In this document: piece after piece, positions 2 to 33,556 of the stretch
Layout of the letters: each line of letters begins with the position of its first letter
Position numbering within the stretch: the stretch's first letter is position 1
Virus record (IMG/VR): IMGVR_UViG_3300047160_014550
Location: 2,765-66,764 of that record
Direction: 5' to 3' (one strand)
Origin: a virus
Taxonomy: Duplodnaviria; Caudoviricetes
Length of the DNA: 64,000 nucleotides
Made by a program: the position numbers and the translations under genes
The notes under the pieces: model-generated
Database searches by the model: none
What the model was told of the DNA's origin: nothing
What the model saw: the letters and a program-made list of their open reading frames with translations, nothing else

Positions 2-415
2 AATCCATTTCCGGGCAGCAACGCTTCGTCGGGCGTTTATGACGGGTCAATCGTTTCGGAGATTTTCTGGGAATTTACGTCGTCCAATACTGTCGACATG
101 GGACTTAACATTCTCGGGACGGTTCTTGCGTCAACGACGAATGTCCAGGCTGTGTGGACCGTTTCGCGAAGCGGCACGACGACGACGGTGATGAAAAACG
201 GGACGTCGTTGAATACCGGCACCAGCACGGCCACCCAGGTTCCGACCAAGAGCTTTTACCTGGGGGCTCGCAACGGCAACGGAACGGCTCAGTTCTTCGA
301 CGGCGGCAATCAAGTGGCGGCTTTCATCGGAGGGGCTTTGACGACGACCGACAACGGCAACATCCACACCCGGCTCAATACGTACACGACCGCGTTGGGG
401 ACCGCGCAATGCTGA
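2..415 (+). CDS. Partial (5'-truncated) fibre/adhesin-like protein, lectin/LamG-like C-terminus
   Basis: Frame open from base 2 to TGA 413-415; Thr/Gly/Ser-rich beta-type sequence ending FYLGARNGNG...AAFIGGALT; stop overlaps next ATG. Confidence 0.65.
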   Translation, partial: NPFPGSNASSGVYDGSIVSEIFWEFTSSNTVDMGLNILGTVLASTTNVQAVWTVSRSGTTTTVMKNGTSLNTGTSTATQVPTKSFYLGARNGNGTAQFFDGGNQVAAFIGGALTTTDNGNIHTRLNTYTTALGTAQC

Positions 416-1722
416 GACTGGTTTCGCTTGCCCTTATGATCTTTCTGGCTGGCGCGCTTTACGTGCGGGCGCAGACCTACGGGTTTCTCGGAGCCAACAT
501 CGCAGGCGTTGGCAGCTACCAGGGCATCGGTGACGTCAAGGCAGGAGCTGTGCTCTATGTGTCATCGGGATCGTGTTATACGGCGGCGTATCCTGGGAAC
601 ATAGCTATCATCAAAGACACTGTGACTAATGTTACATCGACGACGCTGGGCTGTACGACCGGCGTCGTGGCAAAAACGGCCGGCAGCACTCTGACGACGA
701 CCTGTACCAGTTTTTGTTATACGAATACCGCATACGATCAGACTCTCAGCACATCCTGCACGGGGGGTTCCGGTGCGGCGAATTGCATTTTTACCAATTA
801 TCCGGCGTCGGGATCGCAGTGGAACCAGTACCAAAATCCGACCTACAACGTACCGGCTCCCAATGGAACGACGCGGTGCGATCATTATGCCGGGTATGGA
901 GATGGAAATTACAATATCACCAGCATGACCAGCTACAATTCTACGACCGGGGTTGTGACGGTCGTGGTGTCGCCGGTTGCCGGGGGGAGCGTCTGGGTCT
1001 TAGCGAATGGCTATAACTTTCTCAAGGTAGGAACCATCACCGGCACCGGCACCGATATTGCGACGATCTCCGGCGGAATATATCCTCTTGTGGCGCCGAC
1101 CACGACGGGGGCTCCCAGCGGTCCTTTGCAGATTTCGTTCAAGGTGGCGCCATCGCTGAACCTTCTCACCATGACGGCCGGAACCATTTATCAGGTTCCG
1201 CAAACGCTCAACAACACGACGAATGGGTACAGCACCACGAGTGGGTTCGGGCCATATTCCACTCCTTATACCGTGTTGTGGATGGGAGCGCCGGACGGCT
1301 ATCAGGACGCCGGGTCTTCAGGCGGTCCCAACGCCAACAACCTCCAGTCTGACACGTTTCCCAGCATGCCGGGAAGTACGACATGGGGCAGTCCCACGAG
1401 CACACCCTCAAGGGCCGACCTCGGGATGGTCAGCAATGCCAGCGACGCACCGAATTTCGGCAGCATCTATCGCACTGTCACGGCCGGTTCCTGGCATTCG
1501 GTGTTGGCCATGTTCAACGGGGGAAGCTCGAAATTGTGCCTCGAAGGAATCTGCAACCCGGTCAGTCTCAACGTGGCTGCGGCCTGGGGCGGCATGTCGT
1601 ACGGGAACGGCACGGGTGGCTTTGGCTTCGCGCAGTGCGAGATGGCGTTCTATGCAAGCGACGTGACGGCCTTTGCGAACGCGTTCTACGCAAATCAGAA
1701 GATCAGGCTCGGGAATTTCTGA
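409..1722 (+). CDS. Secreted-type Thr/Gly/Ser-rich beta protein (fibre/adhesin-like) with Sec signal peptide
   Basis: ATG 409 overlaps upstream stop; N-terminus MLRLVSLALMIFLAGALYVRA-Q; the listed ORF extension 154-408 is out-of-frame overlap with the upstream gene. Confidence 0.7.
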   Translation: MLRLVSLALMIFLAGALYVRAQTYGFLGANIAGVGSYQGIGDVKAGAVLYVSSGSCYTAAYPGNIAIIKDTVTNVTSTTLGCTTGVVAKTAGSTLTTTCTSFCYTNTAYDQTLSTSCTGGSGAANCIFTNYPASGSQWNQYQNPTYNVPAPNGTTRCDHYAGYGDGNYNITSMTSYNSTTGVVTVVVSPVAGGSVWVLANGYNFLKVGTITGTGTDIATISGGIYPLVAPTTTGAPSGPLQISFKVAPSLNLLTMTAGTIYQVPQTLNNTTNGYSTTSGFGPYSTPYTVLWMGAPDGYQDAGSSGGPNANNLQSDTFPSMPGSTTWGSPTSTPSRADLGMVSNASDAPNFGSIYRTVTAGSWHSVLAMFNGGSSKLCLEGICNPVSLNVAAAWGGMSYGNGTGGFGFAQCEMAFYASDVTAFANAFYANQKIRLGNF

Positions 1723-1723
1723 C

Positions 1724-4654
1724 ATGAGCAAGCTCATCGATCGCATTCGGGCGCGTATCCGGGGCGAGGACAAGTACGTTTACACCTACGAGAATGCTCC
1801 AAAGGACGATTACGTCGATCGCTGGAACCATCTTCGCATAGCTCGACGTAATTTTCTGATTCCGACTGCGGTTGGTGTAGTCGGTATCGGAATGTACGAT
1901 GCGGAGCGTCAGGCGGCATTGGCTCAGACAACGACGCCGTTCTCGTCGTGGCCGCTGCGGTCCTCGATTGGCGGCGTCTCTCCCGCCGCCCCCGGAACGA
2001 CGCCTACGGCAGGCACATCACAGCGGACCTTTGCCGATCGGGTTTGGGACAGCGGCGTCAACGTTCTTGAGTTCTATCCTGCTCTGCTTTTGGCCGGATC
2101 GCCGTTCACACCAACGCCCGGCGTTGGTAAGACGGTGATGAAGAATGCAAATAACCCTCTGAGTAACTTTTATGCCACTCTTGCTGCTGCTCAGATTGAT
2201 TATCCGTTTGCTACCAGTCTGGCTGACGAGATCGACTGGCATGCGTGGCAAGCAGCATTTCTCTACATATACAACCGCGATAACGGCAATGGCGTGGGAA
2301 CCGTGCGGATTCCGACTGGCATCTCGCTCATCAACAGGACCATCCAGTGCGCTTGCAGCGGTATAAATATCATTGGTTCAGGCAATGTGGATTACCCGTC
2401 TCAGATCAGGTGGAATGGGCCTGATGGAACGAAGGATGCTCCTAATTACCAGATGCTGTTTCAATGCACTACCGAGCTTGGAGTTGCAGTCAAGCAGCTT
2501 GGTTCTTCCGTGGGCCAGCAGCAGCTAAATGGCGGAGCACAGAACATCGAGCGCATCCTGTTTCAGGGCAAGTCCGGGTCCATGACGGGCACGGTTGGCA
2601 ATGAGTCGCACTTCATCAGCGGCCTGCGGGTCAGTCAGGGTGGCGGCTTCATGATCAGGCTTTGCGGGTTCGGTGGGACGCTGTGGGACGGACTGGTGTT
2701 CACCGGAGCCCTGACTTGGACCTACGTGGAAAGGAATCTCTTCACGGCCTGCTACCGGGATGCTGTGGCGTTCTGGCCGGTACTTGGCAATTTCTCCACG
2801 ACGATGCACGTCAACGGCAATAATTTCAGCCAATATGGCAGATATGCCATTCTGCTCAACGTGTCGGCCACGGCCGCAACTCCAGTCGTCTACGATAACC
2901 TTTTCGAGCCTCAGACAAATCCCTCGTATTTTACTCTCAATCCGCAATGGTTCCTGCACGGGGTTCCGGCCTCGTGTGCAATAGCAGGGTGTTCGCAAAT
3001 TCACTGGTCCGTGTCATACCTTGAGCTATCCATAGGGAACCTTAGCTTTTTGCACATACTGGATTCCGGGAATGGCGAGTTTTCGGAGCAGTGGGGAACC
3101 GGCGACAGTCCGTCGGTTGTATTTTCAAACAGCGTAAACGTAATTTCCAACACCATCGCTACATGGACGGGCACAAATCTGACACTGTCCGGCACTCAGG
3201 TCGGGACTTGGCAGATCGGCATGACGGTGCAGACGCCGGGTTCGGCGACGGCGCCGTATATTGCGCAGATCACCGGTACGACGACGGCAGGGTCTGCCAT
3301 TGTTACGGGACTGTCTTCCACGTCGGCGCTGTGTCCCGGCCTTGAGGCAACGACGGGCAGTCCTCCCAGCCCAGGGACCAACATTATTCAGGGAACGCTC
3401 ATTCAAAGCGTTGACAGTTCGTCGCAGATTACCCTGAATACGCCGGCTCGTCTTACTGCAACTCAGAACATCATCTTCAGACTGCCGCCCGGCGCTCGCA
3501 TTACCGGGGGGACATTCCCGAATTTTACGGTCAGTCCTTCGTTGACTGTTCCCGGCACGATCGGGGTCAATTCATCGATATTTACGCCGGACGCGCTCGC
3601 CTATCTTGCGGCCAACGGCTACACCGACACGACCGATACCCGCAATTTCTGGTGCGGGGGAAGCACATCAAATTATCCAACTTCCTCCTATCAGCAGACG
3701 CAAGGCAATTATAAGTTTTCCGGTTGGGGAAATATGCATAGCGTAGGCAATATTTCGCTGGCTGCCGCCAACATTAATCAGTTGGACCGTGCCAGTGCGT
3801 CGGTCATGAGCGACTACGCCTTGGACCCGGTCCATGGGCGGGCCGCACTGGCTGTGTGCAGTGCCGGCGTGTTTGATGCAACCAATGGGTTGTTGACGGT
3901 CGATGCAAGCGGGAACTCTTCGCCGTTCCCGTTCGGGACAGGGCAGACGATCTATGGCCCTGGACTTGGTAATATAGCTGGACCTGATCGGGCCTTTGGC
4001 AAGGCCATTGCGCAGATTTCTACAGGCGGTACGGGATCGGGAGGAGCCGGCACCTACAACATGGCTGCGTCAAGTCCCCTCGGAGCTTCATCGGCTCGGG
4101 CCATCTGGGCCATTACCATGACGTCGAAGGATATCGACTCTTTCGGTATCTTTTCCGGTGTCTCCAACAATATTTGGGAAAACACGTATAACGCAAGTGG
4201 TGTTCTTGGGCCAAATCTCACTACCAGTTACGGGAGGTTCTATAATAAGTTGGAAGCACGTTTTGCTCCGCAGGATAATCAGCCGGAATTATGGGTTTTT
4301 GGCCAGTTTACTGTTCGTCAGACAAATAATATTGCTCCGTCGAGTGGGACATTTCTTCAAGGTTCTCGATGGCTTAACTATGGAGCAAAACCTGGAAACT
4401 TTGAAGGATGGATATGCACGACGACTGGAACCATCGGGGCTGGCGGGGTGATCAGTGCCATGGGGCATAATATCGGGCCGACCACAATTGCTAATCTGCC
4501 GACGCCGGTAACGGCTTTGCAGGGAGCCATGGCCTGCGTTACCGATGCCAGCTCGGCAGCCCTCACGTTCGGCAGTGCCATCGGCTCGGGTGGCGGCTCG
4601 AACGTGTATTATGTCTGGTGCAATGGCACGGCCTGGACGGTGATAGGGAAATGA
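1724..4654 (+). CDS. Tailspike/adhesin-like protein with probable pectate-lyase-like beta-helix and short C-terminal module
   Basis: ATG 2 nt after upstream stop; DDxxAxQAA-like entry (DWHAWQAAF...GTVRIPTG) typical of spike beta-helices; RRNFL motif near the N-terminus; ends TVIGK. Confidence 0.7.
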   Translation: MSKLIDRIRARIRGEDKYVYTYENAPKDDYVDRWNHLRIARRNFLIPTAVGVVGIGMYDAERQAALAQTTTPFSSWPLRSSIGGVSPAAPGTTPTAGTSQRTFADRVWDSGVNVLEFYPALLLAGSPFTPTPGVGKTVMKNANNPLSNFYATLAAAQIDYPFATSLADEIDWHAWQAAFLYIYNRDNGNGVGTVRIPTGISLINRTIQCACSGINIIGSGNVDYPSQIRWNGPDGTKDAPNYQMLFQCTTELGVAVKQLGSSVGQQQLNGGAQNIERILFQGKSGSMTGTVGNESHFISGLRVSQGGGFMIRLCGFGGTLWDGLVFTGALTWTYVERNLFTACYRDAVAFWPVLGNFSTTMHVNGNNFSQYGRYAILLNVSATAATPVVYDNLFEPQTNPSYFTLNPQWFLHGVPASCAIAGCSQIHWSVSYLELSIGNLSFLHILDSGNGEFSEQWGTGDSPSVVFSNSVNVISNTIATWTGTNLTLSGTQVGTWQIGMTVQTPGSATAPYIAQITGTTTAGSAIVTGLSSTSALCPGLEATTGSPPSPGTNIIQGTLIQSVDSSSQITLNTPARLTATQNIIFRLPPGARITGGTFPNFTVSPSLTVPGTIGVNSSIFTPDALAYLAANGYTDTTDTRNFWCGGSTSNYPTSSYQQTQGNYKFSGWGNMHSVGNISLAAANINQLDRASASVMSDYALDPVHGRAALAVCSAGVFDATNGLLTVDASGNSSPFPFGTGQTIYGPGLGNIAGPDRAFGKAIAQISTGGTGSGGAGTYNMAASSPLGASSARAIWAITMTSKDIDSFGIFSGVSNNIWENTYNASGVLGPNLTTSYGRFYNKLEARFAPQDNQPELWVFGQFTVRQTNNIAPSSGTFLQGSRWLNYGAKPGNFEGWICTTTGTIGAGGVISAMGHNIGPTTIANLPTPVTALQGAMACVTDASSAALTFGSAIGSGGGSNVYYVWCNGTAWTVIGK

Positions 4655-27419: not shown

Positions 27420-27625
27420 TTGAGTTTTCCCTTTTCTCCCAAATGCTCATGTTGCATCTCCAGACACAGATCGAATTGCCGAACGATCTCGGCAAACAAA
27501 GCTTCATGTCGCTCGAAGGCTGTCTGCCTGAGTGTTTTGTTGCTAGAAAGCACATTGGCAAGCGCCAGTGCCTCGTATCTATCCAAGTGCAGCATGACAG
27601 TGCCGGAAATGCCCAGTATCTTCAT
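27416..27625 (-). CDS. Hypothetical protein
   Basis: Overlapping start/stop coupling on both sides. Confidence 0.5.
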   Translation of the reverse strand: MKILGISGTVMLHLDRYEALALANVLSSNKTLRQTAFERHEALFAEIVRQFDLCLEMQHEHLGEKGKLK

Positions 27626-30057
27626 AGGTCTCCCCTTTCGACAGCCTCAAGAAGCGCCCCCTGCATCGTCTGATGATGCTCCAGGCGGCGAAAAATCTCC
27701 TTCTCCAGCGGGTTCGACGTCAACTGGATGATCGTCACCGGGTAGTTCTGTCCCGGCCGATGCACCCGGCCGTTTCCCTGCTCGTACAACTCGGCCTTGT
27801 CGGTGGCGCCGAACCAGACGACAGTATCGGCAGCCACAAACTCGTTGATTCCATGCGCGGTCGCGGCGGGGTCGCATAGGATCACCCGCAGCGCCGGATC
27901 GGCAGCGAACCGGGCGATCCGCGCCGAACGTTCCTTGAGCGGCACGGACCCATTGATGACCGATACCCCAACCGTTCCCAAGAGTTTGTCATACAATCTT
28001 TGTATTACAGATGTCAACGGGCAAAACACGACCACCTTGCGAGAGGTTTCATCGAGGATCGCCTCCAGTTCGGAAAAGCGCGCGTCGGCGTCGACCGGAT
28101 GCCATGCATGGTCCGAATCGTAGACCGCTCCCATCGAAATCTGCAGGAACTTGGTCCGGTACGACGCCTCGTTCACGGCCGTGATCGTCTTTCCGTCTTT
28201 CATCAGGATCTGGAGATCCTGCTTGAGGCGGTGCATGAGCCTGTCCTGCTCGGCCGAGAGCGGCACCTCGCGCTGCTGAGTGGTGCAGGATGGGCCGTCC
28301 CAGACCTCCTCGATGGGGATGCGCACGGCCGGCGAGAGGTGCTGCCGGGCAAAGTCGTAGCCGCCGGGTTGCGGCACCCACCGGTACTGCGAGACCTTGA
28401 GCATGGTCTTGTCGCGGAAGGACGTAAAAGACAGCCCGTAGGCCCCGTTCACGAGCTTGGCGAGCCCATACGCATCCGTGGGCGCGTTCGGAGTGGGGGT
28501 GGCCGTCATCAGCCACAGGTAGGGCTTAGCCCCATAGACGAGGCGCGCGATGCGATGACGCTTGGTCTGGGCGTCCCGGTAGCCCGACGCCTCGTCCACG
28601 ATGGCAATCTGGATGTCCTCGCGTTCGGCGAGCGCCTTGGAGAAGCCGTCGAGGGCGAATCGGTTGCGCACGTGCGCCCCCACCCCGACGCCGTCGTGGT
28701 TGATGATGTAGAAGTCGACGTCTCGGGCAAGCTGCTCCAGACGCTTTTCCTGCGTGCCGTGCAGGATGGCGAAGGTTCGCTTGGAGAGGAAGTTCCCGAA
28801 AATGGCGTTCGCCCAGACCCGGTCGAGGATCGAGAGCGGAGCGACGATGAGGGCACGGCACGTTCCGCGCGGGTGCTGCCGCATGATGTAGTCGGCCGCC
28901 CACAGCGCCGAGAGCGTCTTGCCGGTGTTGTGGTGGCACAACCCGTGAGCGATGTAGTTCTCTTCGCCCGGCACGTGCATGTCGTAGTAGACGTCGAACC
29001 GGTCATATGTGATATGGACAATAGTGTCCATGGGAGCATCGCATGCCACGAACGGGACGTCCGCGAAAGCATCCCATGGCCGATCTTCGGCAGTTGGTCG
29101 AGCAGGGCTGGAAGACAGGAGATATAGCCTGCAAGTACGGAATAGATTACCGCCTTGTGCATCATCGCATTCAGCAGGAAGGTATTCCATACGTTCCGAG
29201 TCGGAGCGGACGATATAACGGCGGCTGGAAAGGCGGTCGGCAGCATTCAGGAAACTACGTGTATGTCTATTGCCCGGATCATCCGTTCGCGAAAAAGAAC
29301 GGTTGCGTTCTAGAAAGTCGTTTGATGATGGAATTAAAGCTTGGTCGCTACCTTCGTCCAGAGGAGGTCGTGCATCATAAGCAGGGATTCGATAATCATC
29401 CCGACAATCTCGAAGTATTTGAGACGAACGGTGCGCATCTTGCGGCCACGCTGAAAGGCAAGATTCCGAGATGGACCCCGGAAGGGCGCCGTCGAATACT
29501 GGAAGCCGTTCGCCTACCGCGAGGTCCGCGCAGGAAACCCAGCCCCGGCAAGTCAGAAAGTAGTGCTTCCGAGTGACGCTGATGCTGCGGCCGGAAGCGA
29601 ACGTCACCCGATAGAGTTGATCAGTTCCCTTTCGGAAGGGGGCCGGCGCTCGCGTGTAGCCGGTCCTTGTGCGTACCCAGAACGGCTGTCCTGCCGCCGC
29701 CAATGTCGCAATAGGCGTCGGCCCCTGGCCGGTCTCGATCAGCGTCTCGCCTGCTATGCAGCCCATGTCGGAGAAATTAAAGCCCCGGCGGTGCAGGACC
29801 ATGTGATTTGCCTGCATGATCTGCGTCGCGTAGGGCACAATTCCCGGTCGTGCCGGCCAGTCGTAGGTCGACGCGTCCATGACGGGCACAACCGGCAGGT
29901 CGAGGTAGCAGGCGATCTGCATGTTCACTAGCGAGCGCGGCAAGGCCGTGTACGAGCCGTTGATAGCCTTGGCGTTATCGGCCCGCTCCAGCAATTCCTC
30001 GTGGATGCCGCTGTAAACGACGATGTCGCGCTCGCGGTCGTGCCAGATGTCGGTCAT
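27622..30057 (-). CDS. SNF2-family (SF2) helicase precursor with intein in motif I
   Basis: DMG-[intein]-TGKT, VDEAS, MTATP, QGNGRVHRPGQ motifs; about 533 aa after splicing. Confidence 0.9.
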   Translation of the reverse strand: MTDIWHDRERDIVVYSGIHEELLERADNAKAINGSYTALPRSLVNMQIACYLDLPVVPVMDASTYDWPARPGIVPYATQIMQANHMVLHRRGFNFSDMGCIAGETLIETGQGPTPIATLAAAGQPFWVRTRTGYTRAPAPFRKGTDQLYRVTFASGRSISVTRKHYFLTCRGWVSCADLAVGERLPVFDGALPGSISESCLSAWPQDAHRSSQILRDCRDDYRIPAYDARPPLDEGSDQALIPSSNDFLERNRSFSRTDDPGNRHTRSFLNAADRLSSRRYIVRSDSERMEYLPAECDDAQGGNLFRTCRLYLLSSSPARPTAEDRPWDAFADVPFVACDAPMDTIVHITYDRFDVYYDMHVPGEENYIAHGLCHHNTGKTLSALWAADYIMRQHPRGTCRALIVAPLSILDRVWANAIFGNFLSKRTFAILHGTQEKRLEQLARDVDFYIINHDGVGVGAHVRNRFALDGFSKALAEREDIQIAIVDEASGYRDAQTKRHRIARLVYGAKPYLWLMTATPTPNAPTDAYGLAKLVNGAYGLSFTSFRDKTMLKVSQYRWVPQPGGYDFARQHLSPAVRIPIEEVWDGPSCTTQQREVPLSAEQDRLMHRLKQDLQILMKDGKTITAVNEASYRTKFLQISMGAVYDSDHAWHPVDADARFSELEAILDETSRKVVVFCPLTSVIQRLYDKLLGTVGVSVINGSVPLKERSARIARFAADPALRVILCDPAATAHGINEFVAADTVVWFGATDKAELYEQGNGRVHRPGQNYPVTIIQLTSNPLEKEIFRRLEHHQTMQGALLEAVERGDL
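28927..29760 (-). mobile_element. Intein, 278 aa, with no in-frame endonuclease domain
   Basis: N-terminus CIAGETLI, block B VTRKHYFLT, block F YYDMHVPGEENYIAHG, C-terminus HHN, +1 Thr of TGKT. Confidence 0.92.
29043..29576 (+). CDS. HNH endonuclease encoded antisense inside the intein
   Basis: GGGAG RBS 6 nt upstream; N-terminal HTH-like part, WKGGR, YVYCPDHP, VLESRLMME..LGRYL..EEVVHHK...DNL. Confidence 0.85.
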   Translation: MPRTGRPRKHPMADLRQLVEQGWKTGDIACKYGIDYRLVHHRIQQEGIPYVPSRSGRYNGGWKGGRQHSGNYVYVYCPDHPFAKKNGCVLESRLMMELKLGRYLRPEEVVHHKQGFDNHPDNLEVFETNGAHLAATLKGKIPRWTPEGRRRILEAVRLPRGPRRKPSPGKSESSASE

Positions 30058-30144: not shown

Positions 30145-30420
30145 TCAGAAGGGGCAACCATCGCGATGACATCGGTGCCGATATCGCGGTTGTGGAACAG
30201 CGCATTGAATAATCCATACTCCCGCGACGTTCTCAATTCGTGTTGCCACAGTTAACTGCGTTCCATCGCGTGCTTTCCGCAACCGCCTTTGCAGGATAGG
30301 GAGCGTTTCGTTCACCCACTTGATCACATCCGGCTTCAAGATCGGAATCAACCGTTTTTCATCGCCTCCGAGCCCTGCTGCAAATGCCCAATCGAGATTG
30401 AGCTTCATGTATATTTTCAT
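30145..30420 (-). CDS. Hypothetical protein
   Basis: ATGA overlap with VRR-NUC stop. Confidence 0.45.
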   Translation of the reverse strand: MKIYMKLNLDWAFAAGLGGDEKRLIPILKPDVIKWVNETLPILQRRLRKARDGTQLTVATRIENVAGVWIIQCAVPQPRYRHRCHRDGCPF

Positions 30421-30731
30421 GACGTGCTCCGCTGTCCCGTTGGAATAAAGACGCCTCGCCATGCCTCGATGCGCGCGATGATGACCTCGGCCGTGCCCCA
30501 CACCGTCATGCCGCCGGCTTTCTCGATCGCCTTGAGATAAAAGTCCTGCCGTACTGTCGGCTTCTTGCCCGGTCTTTTAACCTCGATGCCCCAGAAAATC
30601 CCGTTGATGCAAGCCAGCATGTCGACGGATTGCACGCCCCAGCCACCCTGAACCGGCGAGAAGACGTAGGCATTGATAGAGGCGAGATACTTGCGGACCT
30701 CGTCCTTCTGGCGACCTTCGGGAGTTTTCAT
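30417..30731 (-). CDS. VRR-NUC domain nuclease
   Basis: PEG..K..V..YL, DMLAC..G.FWGIEVKRPGKKPT.RQ. Confidence 0.85.
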   Translation of the reverse strand: MKTPEGRQKDEVRKYLASINAYVFSPVQGGWGVQSVDMLACINGIFWGIEVKRPGKKPTVRQDFYLKAIEKAGGMTVWGTAEVIIARIEAWRGVFIPTGQRSTS

Positions 30732-30822
30732 GCGGTGTGCCACCCTGGTATGCTTCGTAGCCGGCTTGTAAAATATTCCAGAAACCGTTCCCGGTCCTTC
30801 GGGTGCATGCGGCGCATGCAGG

Positions 30823-31506
30823 TCAGGGCCAGTGATATCTCGGCGTCAGCCCATTGTGCTCGCATTTCTTAACCGGGCAGTATCCACAGAGCGGTCCCGG
30901 TCTTTTTTCGAAGTGCCCGGCCGCCGTGTCGGCCGCGATCTGCATCGACGCGGTCACGATCTTGTCCCACGTTTTGTCCGTGTCGGTCAGGTTGTGGATT
31001 TTGCCCATCTTTCCTTCCCGGAGCCACGCAAACTGCCCGTAGATCGACTTGAGATTGACGTGCGCCGCTTCGAGCAGGACCGCGCCGGTTTGCAATTCGA
31101 GCGGCGCTTCCCAGGGTCGGCCGGTCTTCCAGTCGAGGATGTAGGCGTGCTCGTAATCCGGGCTCACGAGGCTCAGATCCAGCTTGCCGCGAAAGAACGC
31201 CTTGGGAGAGAAGAAGTCGACAAGGTCGCCCTCGCGGTCGACGGCAAGCTGCTGCTCGACTCGCAGCGTGTAGGCCGATTCCTCGTACTTGTCGAAGGTC
31301 ACGGCAAACGTCTCGTAGTGCGCGTGCTCCTTGGGCAGCTTGGTCCCTCGGCCGATGCGGTGCTCCATGGCCTCGTGAACGGCGGTGCCGCGCCGCGTCG
31401 CCTCGTTGCCCTCGAACGGCATCTTGAGCACGTAGCGGTGCTGATACTGATGTGGGCAGACGTTGAGATAAGTGTTCAAGCTGCTGAACGAATGTGGAGA
31501 GGTCAT
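30823..31506 (-). CDS. PD-(D/E)XK exonuclease (RecB/Cas4-like)
   Basis: HSFSSL..Y..CP, RGT.VH, RGKLDL, LDWKTG, C-terminal CGYCPV..C. Confidence 0.85.
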   Translation of the reverse strand: MTSPHSFSSLNTYLNVCPHQYQHRYVLKMPFEGNEATRRGTAVHEAMEHRIGRGTKLPKEHAHYETFAVTFDKYEESAYTLRVEQQLAVDREGDLVDFFSPKAFFRGKLDLSLVSPDYEHAYILDWKTGRPWEAPLELQTGAVLLEAAHVNLKSIYGQFAWLREGKMGKIHNLTDTDKTWDKIVTASMQIAADTAAGHFEKRPGPLCGYCPVKKCEHNGLTPRYHWP

Positions 31507-31512
31507 TTTTGG

Positions 31513-31689
31513 CTACCAGTCATGCTCGTCGCGAAGTTGTCGTTCAGTCTCCCAACGAATTTTTCGAGCAAGCGTCACCGAACGAACGATATCGTCGTAA
31601 TCCCACGTATCCAAAGATGCAAACAACACGGCAGCAAGCTGCGCTATGAACGCAACACGTTCCTCTCGACCCGTTAAACTAGTTTTCAT
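31513..31689 (-). CDS. Hypothetical protein (58 aa)
   Basis: Read by hand: MKTSLTGREERVAFIAQLAAVLF...; fills the gap between polymerase and exonuclease. Confidence 0.45.
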   Translation of the reverse strand: MKTSLTGREERVAFIAQLAAVLFASLDTWDYDDIVRSVTLARKIRWETERQLRDEHDW

Positions 31690-33556
31690 AACGTTCTCCC
31701 AGATGTCCCTCGCACGCCAGCGGAATGCCGGGCAGCCACTCCGGCTCGCGGCGCATTTCCTCCAGGCATATCTCCAAGTTCTTTTCCTCGTGGCCGTCTT
31801 TTGGCAGGAGCAGCAGCAGTTCGTCGTGGGGAATGTTCAGCGTCCTGAAGCCCCGTCTTTTGAGCCGGATCATCGCCTGGGTCACGATCACCCTTGAGAC
31901 CGCCTCGCAGATGTTCTGCGTGAGGACTCCCTGATGAATGACTTTGCGCGCCTCGCGCCGCTTGATCTCCCACCAGCCGCCCCAGCGGGTTTCCGGCAGG
32001 CTCTCGCACTCCTCGGGCGTCGGCACGTACCAGTTCAGGCTGTCGTAGATCAGGCAGGTGCCGTTGGGCAGCCACAGCCGTCTTTTATCGAGGAAGAGCG
32101 GCCCCCACTGCTCGCTCTTGCCGTCGGCGAGCTTCTGCAAGGCCCTTCCGGCGGCGCGCCAGTATTGGACGATGTTCGGCGAGGCGTCGCGATAGATTCG
32201 CTTCCACCGCTCCGCAGTCTCCAAATCAATGGTGACAGGCGGCCCGTAAACACCTAGTCTGGCGGTTCGCTGAATGGTTGCAGCGCCAGCCATATACCCG
32301 CAGCTAAGTTTTAACTGTTTTCCGGTCCCACGTTCACGTTTCATTCCTTTGTCGACCGGGTAGCCGTAGGCTTGCGAGGCGAGCGCGATGTAGGGGTCGA
32401 CGCCGTTTTTGAACTCCGCGAGCGCGTCCAGCTCCCCGGCGAGGTACGAGAGCACCCGGCACTCAATCTGCGAGAGATCGACCGGCGCAAGCAGGAACCC
32501 CTCGGGCGCCAGGATGGCGCGCCTCAAAGGCGACGGCTCCTTGGGGCTGTCCGGGTCGGATCGCTTGAGATTCTGAAAATTCGTGCGGTCGCCCCCCGAG
32601 AACCGCAGGGTCGAGGCCCCACAGTAATTCAGGTAGACCGGCATCGGCCCGCGCGAGTTCATCCACGCGAACGTTTCGGCGCGGGTCTGGATGATGGAGG
32701 ACTTCGCGTCGAGCCGCGCCTCGGCGAGCGCCACGACGATGGGATCGTCGTGCTCCAGCAAGCTGAGCATGTACGGGTCGGTCTTGGCAAAGCAGTATTT
32801 CACGTTGCCTTTGGCGGTGATCTTGGTCTCGGGCTCTTCGGCCTGCGCGCGAAGCAAGTCCGCAAAGCCCTGGTCCGAGCGCAAGTCGTGCCCGTTCACC
32901 TTGAGCTTCGCCTGGGCGTCGGTCCGTCTTTTTTCCTCCCGCTCCCACGCCTCGCGCAGGACCGCGACGTCGGCCCGGAGCACCGGCTCCGTAAACATTC
33001 TTATGGTCTGGTCGATCACCTCGAACTCTTCGCGGGGAAATTCGGGAATTTCCCGGCCATTTCCCCGCGTGAGCAATTCGAAAAGTTTCCACGTCAGCTC
33101 GCAGTCGACGAGGCAGCCGTTGCCGAGCATCGACAAGGTCAGCGGATCGAGGTCTTCGATGCCGTCGAACGACGTGTAGTTTATGGTCTTTCCATGGAGG
33201 TTAAAGTGTTGAGCCAGACTATCCAGCGAGTTGGAAAAGTTGGCTCCCAGCGAATGACGAGCCATCGACAACGTGTCGAACCAGAATCGGGGACGAACCC
33301 CGTAATGATGATTGAGGATGAGTCCGTCGAAATGGGCGTGGTGGGCCAGTACACCCAGCTCGTCCCATCGTTGAGATTGGAAGAAGGCAGCAAGCTGGTC
33401 CCGTGGTATCCAAAACTGTTTTCCATCGTGCCACCGAAACCCGCAAAGATGGGCTTTGAAACGCTTGTCGCGCACGTAGGCTTCCGTCGACATCTTCGAC
33501 AGCGTGTAGTCTTTTGAGCTGTACCTCGTTTCAAAATCAAGGGTGACGATTTTCAT
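31679..33556 (-). CDS. DNA polymerase, family A, with 3'-5' exonuclease
   Basis: LDFET, AHHAHFD, DTLSMA, DLSQIECR, GK..KLSCGY, HDEL motifs. Confidence 0.92.
   Translation of the reverse strand: MKIVTLDFETRYSSKDYTLSKMSTEAYVRDKRFKAHLCGFRWHDGKQFWIPRDQLAAFFQSQRWDELGVLAHHAHFDGLILNHHYGVRPRFWFDTLSMARHSLGANFSNSLDSLAQHFNLHGKTINYTSFDGIEDLDPLTLSMLGNGCLVDCELTWKLFELLTRGNGREIPEFPREEFEVIDQTIRMFTEPVLRADVAVLREAWEREEKRRTDAQAKLKVNGHDLRSDQGFADLLRAQAEEPETKITAKGNVKYCFAKTDPYMLSLLEHDDPIVVALAEARLDAKSSIIQTRAETFAWMNSRGPMPVYLNYCGASTLRFSGGDRTNFQNLKRSDPDSPKEPSPLRRAILAPEGFLLAPVDLSQIECRVLSYLAGELDALAEFKNGVDPYIALASQAYGYPVDKGMKRERGTGKQLKLSCGYMAGAATIQRTARLGVYGPPVTIDLETAERWKRIYRDASPNIVQYWRAAGRALQKLADGKSEQWGPLFLDKRRLWLPNGTCLIYDSLNWYVPTPEECESLPETRWGGWWEIKRREARKVIHQGVLTQNICEAVSRVIVTQAMIRLKRRGFRTLNIPHDELLLLLPKDGHEEKNLEICLEEMRREPEWLPGIPLACEGHLGERYEN

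Follow-up and report, generated by a model that had tools for sequence, protein, structure and literature searches.

Organization of the Helicase Locus

The 64,000-nucleotide stretch of viral DNA analyzed here (hereafter, the window) corresponds to positions 2,765 to 66,764 of the IMG/VR record IMGVR_UViG_3300047160_014550 (Duplodnaviria; Caudoviricetes), which is 66.8 kb long and carries direct terminal repeats. The G+C content of the window is 60%, and fragments of its virus are present in soil metagenomes. The minus strand encodes an SNF2-family helicase (27622..30057; 811 codons and a stop codon), the open reading frame (ORF) of which is composed of an N-extein, an intein, and a C-extein. 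The plus strand encodes, within the intein and antisense to it, a putative HNH homing endonuclease (29043-29576; 177 codons and a TGA stop codon). The helicase translation matches the Pfam families SNF2-rel_dom, Helicase_C, and Intein_splicing and, among the PHROG families, DNA helicase (E = 7.4e-78). The N-extein (residues 1-99; 29761..30057, minus strand) ends with FNFSDMG, the first half of the Walker A motif, and the C-extein with its stop codon (27622..28926, minus strand) begins with TGKT, the second half.

The class-1 intein between them consists of 278 residues (helicase residues 100-377; 28927-29760, minus strand), and the arrangement at the insertion site is DMG/C...HN/TGKT. A preliminary description of this DNA had given the same coordinates for the intein and the HNH gene, which proved exact, and had reported a complete set of splicing motifs and an insertion in Walker A. 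Indeed, all of the motifs are present, namely C1, block B (T63-R-K-H66), block F (Y258-Y259-D260..V263-P264), block G (H277-N278), and the +1 Thr. Across 23 aligned related inteins, C1, H66, H277, and N278 are invariant, with the remaining motifs invariant or nearly so.

In the AlphaFold model of the intein, beta strands are predicted with high confidence in the N-terminal Hint lobe (residues 1-91; 29488..29760; pLDDT confidence score of 85-96) and the C-terminal Hint lobe (residues 241-278; 28927..29040; pLDDT of 88-95). The intervening loop of about 149 residues (residues 92-240; 29041..29487, minus strand as are both lobes) is the antisense reading of the HNH gene and has no predicted fold (pLDDT of 30-41). 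A Pfam search of the helicase-frame translation detected no HNH or other endonuclease domain, and the helicase ORF stays single over its 811 codons, with no stop in the intein frame. The earlier proposal that the central 178 codons are non-domain sequence in the intein frame holds for residues 92-240, but not for the stretch opposite the last 30 HNH codons, which overlie the constrained region of block B.

The Antisense HNH Gene and Its Predicted Product

The HNH start codon falls on the last codon of the intein loop, and 6 nt before this ATG lies a Shine-Dalgarno-like GGGAG (29032-29036, plus strand) that is itself inside the codons of the intein C-lobe. GGAG- or AGGAG-like motifs are found 6-10 nt ahead of the HNH start in most relatives. 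The HNH ORF matches six HNH-endonuclease families in PHROG (best E = 8.6e-21), shows 43-51% identity to HNH genes of cultured phages in tblastn searches, and has 18,971 relatives at E ≤ 0.001 in a library of 1.8 billion proteins. Matches to PF13392 were obtained with the antisense ORFs of two related loci (L015 and L012) and with a free-standing relative from Pseudoalteromonas phage PHS3.

The AlphaFold model of the HNH protein, for which an alignment of 50 sequences was the input, has a mean pLDDT of 89.6 and consists of an N-terminal three-helix helix-turn-helix (HTH), a beta-beta-alpha core, and a C-terminal helix. This confidence and the PHROG matches bear out the preliminary description of the opposite strand as a coherent HNH gene with its own GGGAG. 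The predicted HTH DNA-binding domain (HNH residues 15-46; 29085..29180, plus strand) also has a profile match to HTH repeats, and aligns with the HTH domains of GcrA and resolvase with a Z score of 6.3 and a root-mean-square deviation (rmsd) of about 2 Å over 43-45 residues. The predicted beta-beta-alpha catalytic core (HNH residues 88-137; 29304..29453, plus strand) contains the motif VVHH(112)K...DN(118)HPDN(122)L...TN(129)GAH(132), with H112, N118, N122, N129, and H132 all invariant in 50 sequences. The core has a profile match to I-HmuI (E = 0.038), and the model aligns with the I-HmuI structure (1u3e) over model residues 56-140 (Z score of 5.7; rmsd of 4.1 Å; 77 residues aligned); a Foldseek search of the model against the PDB returned nothing at E ≤ 0.001. 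The presence of E-S-R in place of the E-H-R motif had been raised as a concern for activity. Among 14 relatives, however, the variable position is Ser in eight, as in the window, and His in six, and the substitution thus appears to be a harmless natural polymorphism.

Two further features of the relatives concern the region upstream of the gene and the length of the gene. TAGACA-like and GATATG hexamers, 17 nt apart, were seen by eye upstream of the HNH gene in relatives, and are not claimed as a promoter; because both coincide with conserved intein codons (YYD and HI), they are indistinguishable from coding constraint. In the antisense HNH ORFs of L047, L045, L034, L048, and L040, the N-terminal HTH module (about 45-60 residues) is duplicated. 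This duplication accounts for the longer inteins of some relatives, in which the loop reaches about 200 residues with both frames still open.

Selection on the Two Overlapping Frames

The preliminary description had argued that about eight stops would be expected by chance in the intein frame, a figure that proved too high. A conservative null, in which the synonymous codons of the HNH gene were shuffled, gives an expectation of 1.9 intein-frame stops in the window and a probability of 0.066 of finding none, with the remaining two antisense phases of the same DNA containing 5 and 9 stops. Taken by itself, the window sequence makes a moderate case, by which chance is weakly excluded.

The comparison with relatives drew on the DNA of the helicases that a protein search with the intein had detected, as well as on that of inteins at a greater distance. 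Among the 14 closest relatives, not one has an intein-frame stop, whereas the shuffle expects 1.9-9.1 in each, with probabilities of finding none that range from <0.0005 to 0.066 per locus. The register of the HNH frame relative to the intein frame is identical in all 14, and the other four frames of their intein DNA (two sense and two antisense), none of which holds a long ORF, contain 5-27 stops each. The HNH frame, whose disruption in close relatives with a conserved intein frame had been named beforehand as grounds for abandoning the proposal, was found to be open in every one of these relatives. More broadly, tblastn matched the HNH protein in 38 loci (about 25 distinct; HNH identity of 37-72%), and in every one of them the match lies opposite the host-gene strand and both frames are open across it. 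A further signature is provided by the dipeptide F[IMTNK] (Phe and then Ile, Met, Thr, Asn, or Lys). In this register, any codons for it would place a stop in the intein frame; it was seen 0 times, against 8.6 expected. On the strength of these sequence comparisons, the evidence against chance can be regarded as decisive. Contigs from other soil runs span both intein junctions and the HNH start, and show no differences from the window.

The distribution of substitutions indicates what is conserved in each frame. Across the 96 codons of the HNH core, pairwise differences average 0.26, 0.22, and 0.60 at HNH codon positions 1, 2, and 3, respectively. HNH position 3 corresponds to position 2 of the intein frame; the intein second positions therefore vary most, and the intein frame of the core is accordingly not constrained at the amino acid level. 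Over the same bases, loop identity is 66.6% in the HNH frame versus 30.1% in the intein frame. A different pattern was observed where the last 30 HNH codons extend into the intein N-lobe, an overlap (HNH residues 149-177; 29488..29576, plus strand) that covers residues 62-91 of the intein and, with them, block B. In this tail, the three positions are about equally conserved (differences of 0.21, 0.30, and 0.29 over 22 aligned codons, residues 149-170) and the two frames are similarly conserved, at 60% identity for the HNH frame and 64% for the intein frame; the tail is therefore doubly constrained. Overall, the codon-position and identity comparisons, together with the shuffle and the 38 open loci, sustain the earlier proposal that selection keeps both strands open, and they indicate that the HNH frame is under purifying selection at the amino acid level, with the intein frame of the loop selected only to stay free of stops.

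Patchy Distribution of the Element

The intein is absent from 116 of the 120 best C-extein matches (56-67% identity). In a tree of 131 exteins, the helicase of the window is sister to an intein-free protein with support of 99, and its clade of 12 rows contains 11 that are intein-free. The tree requires at least 8-10 gains or losses of the intein, a patchiness that is inflated by the choice of intein-bearing rows according to intein similarity. Across 12 loci, mean pairwise identity is 44% for the exteins, 57% for the splicing lobes, and 67% for the HNH protein, and between the window and L048 it is 29% for the extein and 70% for the HNH protein; the stronger conservation of the element could partly reflect constraint rather than transfer.

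The preliminary description had called for a search for relatives and intein-free alleles, which yielded the 38 loci with both frames and an intein-free allele, L052. The latter is a syntenic 60-kb contig in which the uninterrupted site reads SDPG/TMKT. In four soil runs, no joint skipping the intein was found, with the contigs being short, of low depth, and uninformative on intein-free variants.

Three observations concern the neighborhood of the insertion site in the relatives. Several of L032, L045, L044, L002, L034, and L052 have TMKT for TGKT past the insertion site (DMG/DPG-TMKT), the replacement of the usual Gly by Met being uncommon in a Walker A motif. A free-standing HNH_3 gene (1998-2504, plus strand) lies directly upstream of the intein-free helicase gene in L052, and was rejected as a donor given its E value of 2.1 against the antisense HNH protein. 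In L045, a free-standing HNH_3 gene (254-724, plus strand) lies two genes upstream of the helicase gene.

Related Elements in Other Hosts and Other Forms

In the protein search with the intein region, 22 further helicases were found to carry the same intein, and one relative of the window's intein (P0024) is a terminase. A scan of viral contigs with the intein as a single protein detected no relative, and alignment-based scans did retrieve relatives. The same pair of intein and antisense HNH gene was found in the P-loops of terminase large subunits (TerL) and of an SF1 (AAA_30/UvrD_C) helicase, and the family therefore appears to target P-loop sites.

Other forms of the intein occupy the same helicase site. 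Mini-inteins of the same family are present in L049 (156 residues) and L043 (152 residues). The P-loop site of an SNF2 helicase from a brine metagenome (L041; also L042) is likewise occupied by an intein, 265 residues in length (L041, 1010-1804, plus strand), whose HNH domain is in-frame and in L041 matches a PHROG HNH family (E = 1.8e-11). This form is the natural canonical counterpart of the antisense form. The BLASTP comparison of the window's HNH protein with the in-frame HNH intein of L041 was not significant (E = 0.49), their common ground being family-level PHROG matches. A free-standing relative of the antisense gene, APC46236.1 of Pseudoalteromonas phage PHS3, lies between terminase genes and shows 47% identity over about 90 residues. 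The mini-inteins, the PHS3 gene, and the in-frame form at the same site all fit the earlier suggestion that an HNH gene entered a mini-intein backwards.

The occurrence of the dipeptide F[IMTNK] was also counted in the 150 closest HNH clusters of the 1.8-billion-protein library (P0141-P0290). It was seen 13 times against 97 expected, with 140 of the 150 having none, and most of this HTH-HNH clade may thus reside antisense inside inteins.

Several individual records are of note. In Pectobacterium phage Ymer (L050, OP748252.2), a 754-residue "hypothetical protein" (987-3251, minus strand) encoded next to the portal gene is a TerL with an intein, within the gene for which lies an unannotated antisense HNH gene (2501-2827, plus strand), making a cultured system available. 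The same tblastn match was obtained in eight further Pectobacterium and Dickeya phages (H32-H39). The gene calls around P0147 comprise SNF2 pieces of 436 (C-terminal) and 74 residues on one strand and a 182-residue HNH protein between them on the other; either the gene caller split a contiguous intein gene or the form is truly fractured. In L014, a 981-residue frame (1177-4119, plus strand) bears the intein, and Pfam assigned neither a terminase nor another host family to it. A second Hint-domain match (PT-HINT, Hint_2) lies near its C-terminus, at residues 863-953, and is possibly a second intein.

In the window, the helicase gene belongs to a replication module on the minus strand, its neighbors being genes for a small endonuclease (30417-30743), a PD-(D/E)XK exonuclease (30823-31506), and a DNA polymerase (31679-33556), all on the minus strand.

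A Probable Composite Selfish Element Within Walker A

The most convincing interpretation, which we hold to be probably correct, is that the Walker A motif of this SNF2 replication helicase is occupied by a composite selfish element, a class-1 intein whose loop carries a reversed, separate gene for an HTH-HNH homing endonuclease. The helicase would be translated as one precursor through the unstructured loop of about 149 residues, and the intein would then splice itself out, rejoining DMG to TGKT and thus restoring Walker A. The HNH protein would be made from a plus-strand transcript, with its own GGGAG as the ribosome-binding site. It may nick or cut intein-free helicase alleles near the P-loop codons in co-infecting relatives, whereupon repair from an intein-bearing genome would copy the intein and the nuclease gene together.

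Several results weigh against this interpretation. The intein of the window scores just under the curated cut-offs of Intein_splicing (Pfam PF14890; 34.9 versus 35.8 bits) and TIGR01445 (24.4 versus 24.5 bits), that of PF14890 being passed by several of its relatives. The HNH ORF of the window has no match in Pfam (E ≤ 1) or NCBIfam, and the likeness of its model to I-HmuI is modest. Ahead of the HNH start, a plus-strand scan for sigma-70-type consensus sequences revealed no promoter. To these must be added the two reservations given above on the patchiness of the tree and the conservation of the element.

Alternatively, the element could be a fixed relic, in which the intein still splices because the helicase needs it to and the HNH protein no longer drives homing, persisting on account of its young age or because the nuclease has been co-opted, for example for excluding competing phages or for general nicking. 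In its favor, no intein-free variant of this phage was found in the short, low-depth contigs of the four soil runs; in addition, the window's HNH protein has Ser where half of its relatives have the His of E-H-R. Purifying selection on the HNH frame is nevertheless maintained across relatives with identities down to 37%, and the candidate catalytic residues are all invariant. A relic is also hard to reconcile with the patchy extein tree and its intein-free sisters, with an element that is conserved more than its hosts, and with the presence of this element in unrelated host genes. We therefore consider loss of homing to be unlikely, albeit worth bearing in mind.

A second alternative is that the gene is fractured, with two helicase polypeptides joined in trans by a split intein and the HNH gene lying between their genes, in which case the openness of the loop frame would be irrelevant. 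With nucleases of other types, loci of this kind are known (Dassa et al., 2009; PMC2677866), and the gene calls of P0147, two helicase pieces around an opposite-strand HNH gene, have the corresponding appearance. Two polypeptides, however, need no open frame between them, and the intein frame is free of stops in 38 of 38 loci, where 2-9 stops would be expected without selection; a fractured gene is thus very improbable here. Finally, the notion that there is no real second gene, and that the HNH frame arose by chance opposite the intein because the DNA is rich in G+C, or else through faulty assembly, could draw on the 60% G+C and the probability of 0.066 under the conservative null for the window sequence taken alone, and has already been refuted by the HNH homology (E = 8.6e-21, with thousands of relatives), the confident HNH fold in the AlphaFold model, the third-position substitution pattern in the HNH frame, and the coverage of the junctions by independent contigs.

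Beyond the composite element at this locus, a broader and distinctly more tentative proposal is that P-loop-targeting inteins with an antisense HNH gene form a superfamily that is large and old, that continues to move, and in which the HTH-HNH clade may chiefly reside, with the reverse orientation being adaptive rather than an accident. The near absence of F[IMTNK] from the 150 closest HNH clusters hints at such a superfamily, an idea that we would nonetheless back at somewhat less than even odds. If it were true, the reverse orientation would uncouple expression of the nuclease from that of the essential host gene, or would oppose that gene by convergent transcription.

Comparison With Known Systems

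Two-strand coding is documented here by unusually clean comparative evidence, with mini, in-frame, and antisense forms sharing one insertion site and a 30-codon stretch constrained in both frames. For annotation, the consequence is that gene callers overlook the HNH gene within the intein or report the host gene in pieces, and that the nuclease is unannotated even in cultured Pectobacterium phages. Three questions could also be tested on this element: by what means a homing nuclease is expressed when its gene runs counter to an essential operon, what length of junk loop can be accommodated by an intein, and how inteins that target P-loops pass between terminases and helicases.

The preliminary description knew of no intein with an antisense endonuclease gene, but precedents exist for nucleases of other types. 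Antisense LAGLIDADG endonucleases have been described in the Synechocystis DnaX and Chloroflexus SpoVR-like inteins (Gorbalenya, 1998; Gogarten, 2002; both as cited in bioRxiv 10.1101/2025.01.02.630785), and antisense LAGLIDADG and VSR-like endonucleases in actinophage inteins (bioRxiv 10.1101/2025.01.02.630785). Published surveys grade the layout as rare. As in the present case, the intein of these systems is contiguous and has a separate endonuclease ORF on the complementary strand of its loop, no fold is recognizable in the loop when read in-frame whereas the endonuclease folds in its own frame, and the distribution is patchy in a manner that suggests joint mobility. Unlike in those systems, the nuclease described here is of the HTH-HNH type (I-HmuI/HNH_3-like), the host site is the Walker A motif of an SNF2 helicase, and the family extends to terminases and an SF1 helicase, and to uncultured phages as well as cultured Pectobacterium phages.

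A cyanobacterial dnaX intein with an out-of-frame LAGLIDADG endonuclease, for which frame-specific selection has been reported (bioRxiv 10.64898/2026.09.14.751524), is also comparable. The two systems have in common overlapping frames, of which that of the nuclease is under purifying selection and that of the intein under relaxed selection, the coexistence of mini-intein, full, and empty alleles, and a proposed secondary invasion of a mini-intein. They differ in the nuclease family, in the cellular host gene of the dnaX case, and in the frame relation, which is particular to each.

Fractured genes, in which a free-standing endonuclease gene lies between the halves of a split intein (Dassa et al., 2009; PMC2677866), likewise have an endonuclease gene with its own control elements at the position of the intein's endonuclease, mostly in phage replication genes. 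Their host gene, however, is divided between two ORFs, and their nucleases belong to the GIY-YIG or VSR-like type, whereas the host frame in the window is continuous. With the I-HmuI-type HNH endonucleases of phage introns and with free-standing HNH_3 proteins such as that of PHS3, the window's HNH protein shares, in its predicted fold, an HNH core of the beta-beta-alpha type to which a DNA-binding module is joined; those genes are found in introns or between genes, and in no case do they overlie a coding frame of the other strand.

Within inteins, HNH endonucleases have been found in-frame only, according to one survey (bioRxiv 10.1101/2025.01.02.630785). The canonical form, exemplified at this site by L041 and L042, also has an HNH nuclease in the loop between the Hint lobes; by contrast, the HNH protein of the window is encoded by a separate gene on the opposite strand, with its own start codon and ribosome-binding site, and is not part of the precursor protein. 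A literature search returned no published antisense HNH gene in an intein, nor the present element in SNF2 helicases. Overall, the arrangement of an intein with an antisense nuclease gene is already known, if little documented; what is new is the HNH type of the nuclease and the helicase host, and the element of the window thereby adds an HNH-type, helicase-hosted case to the short list of inteins with a separate antisense nuclease gene.

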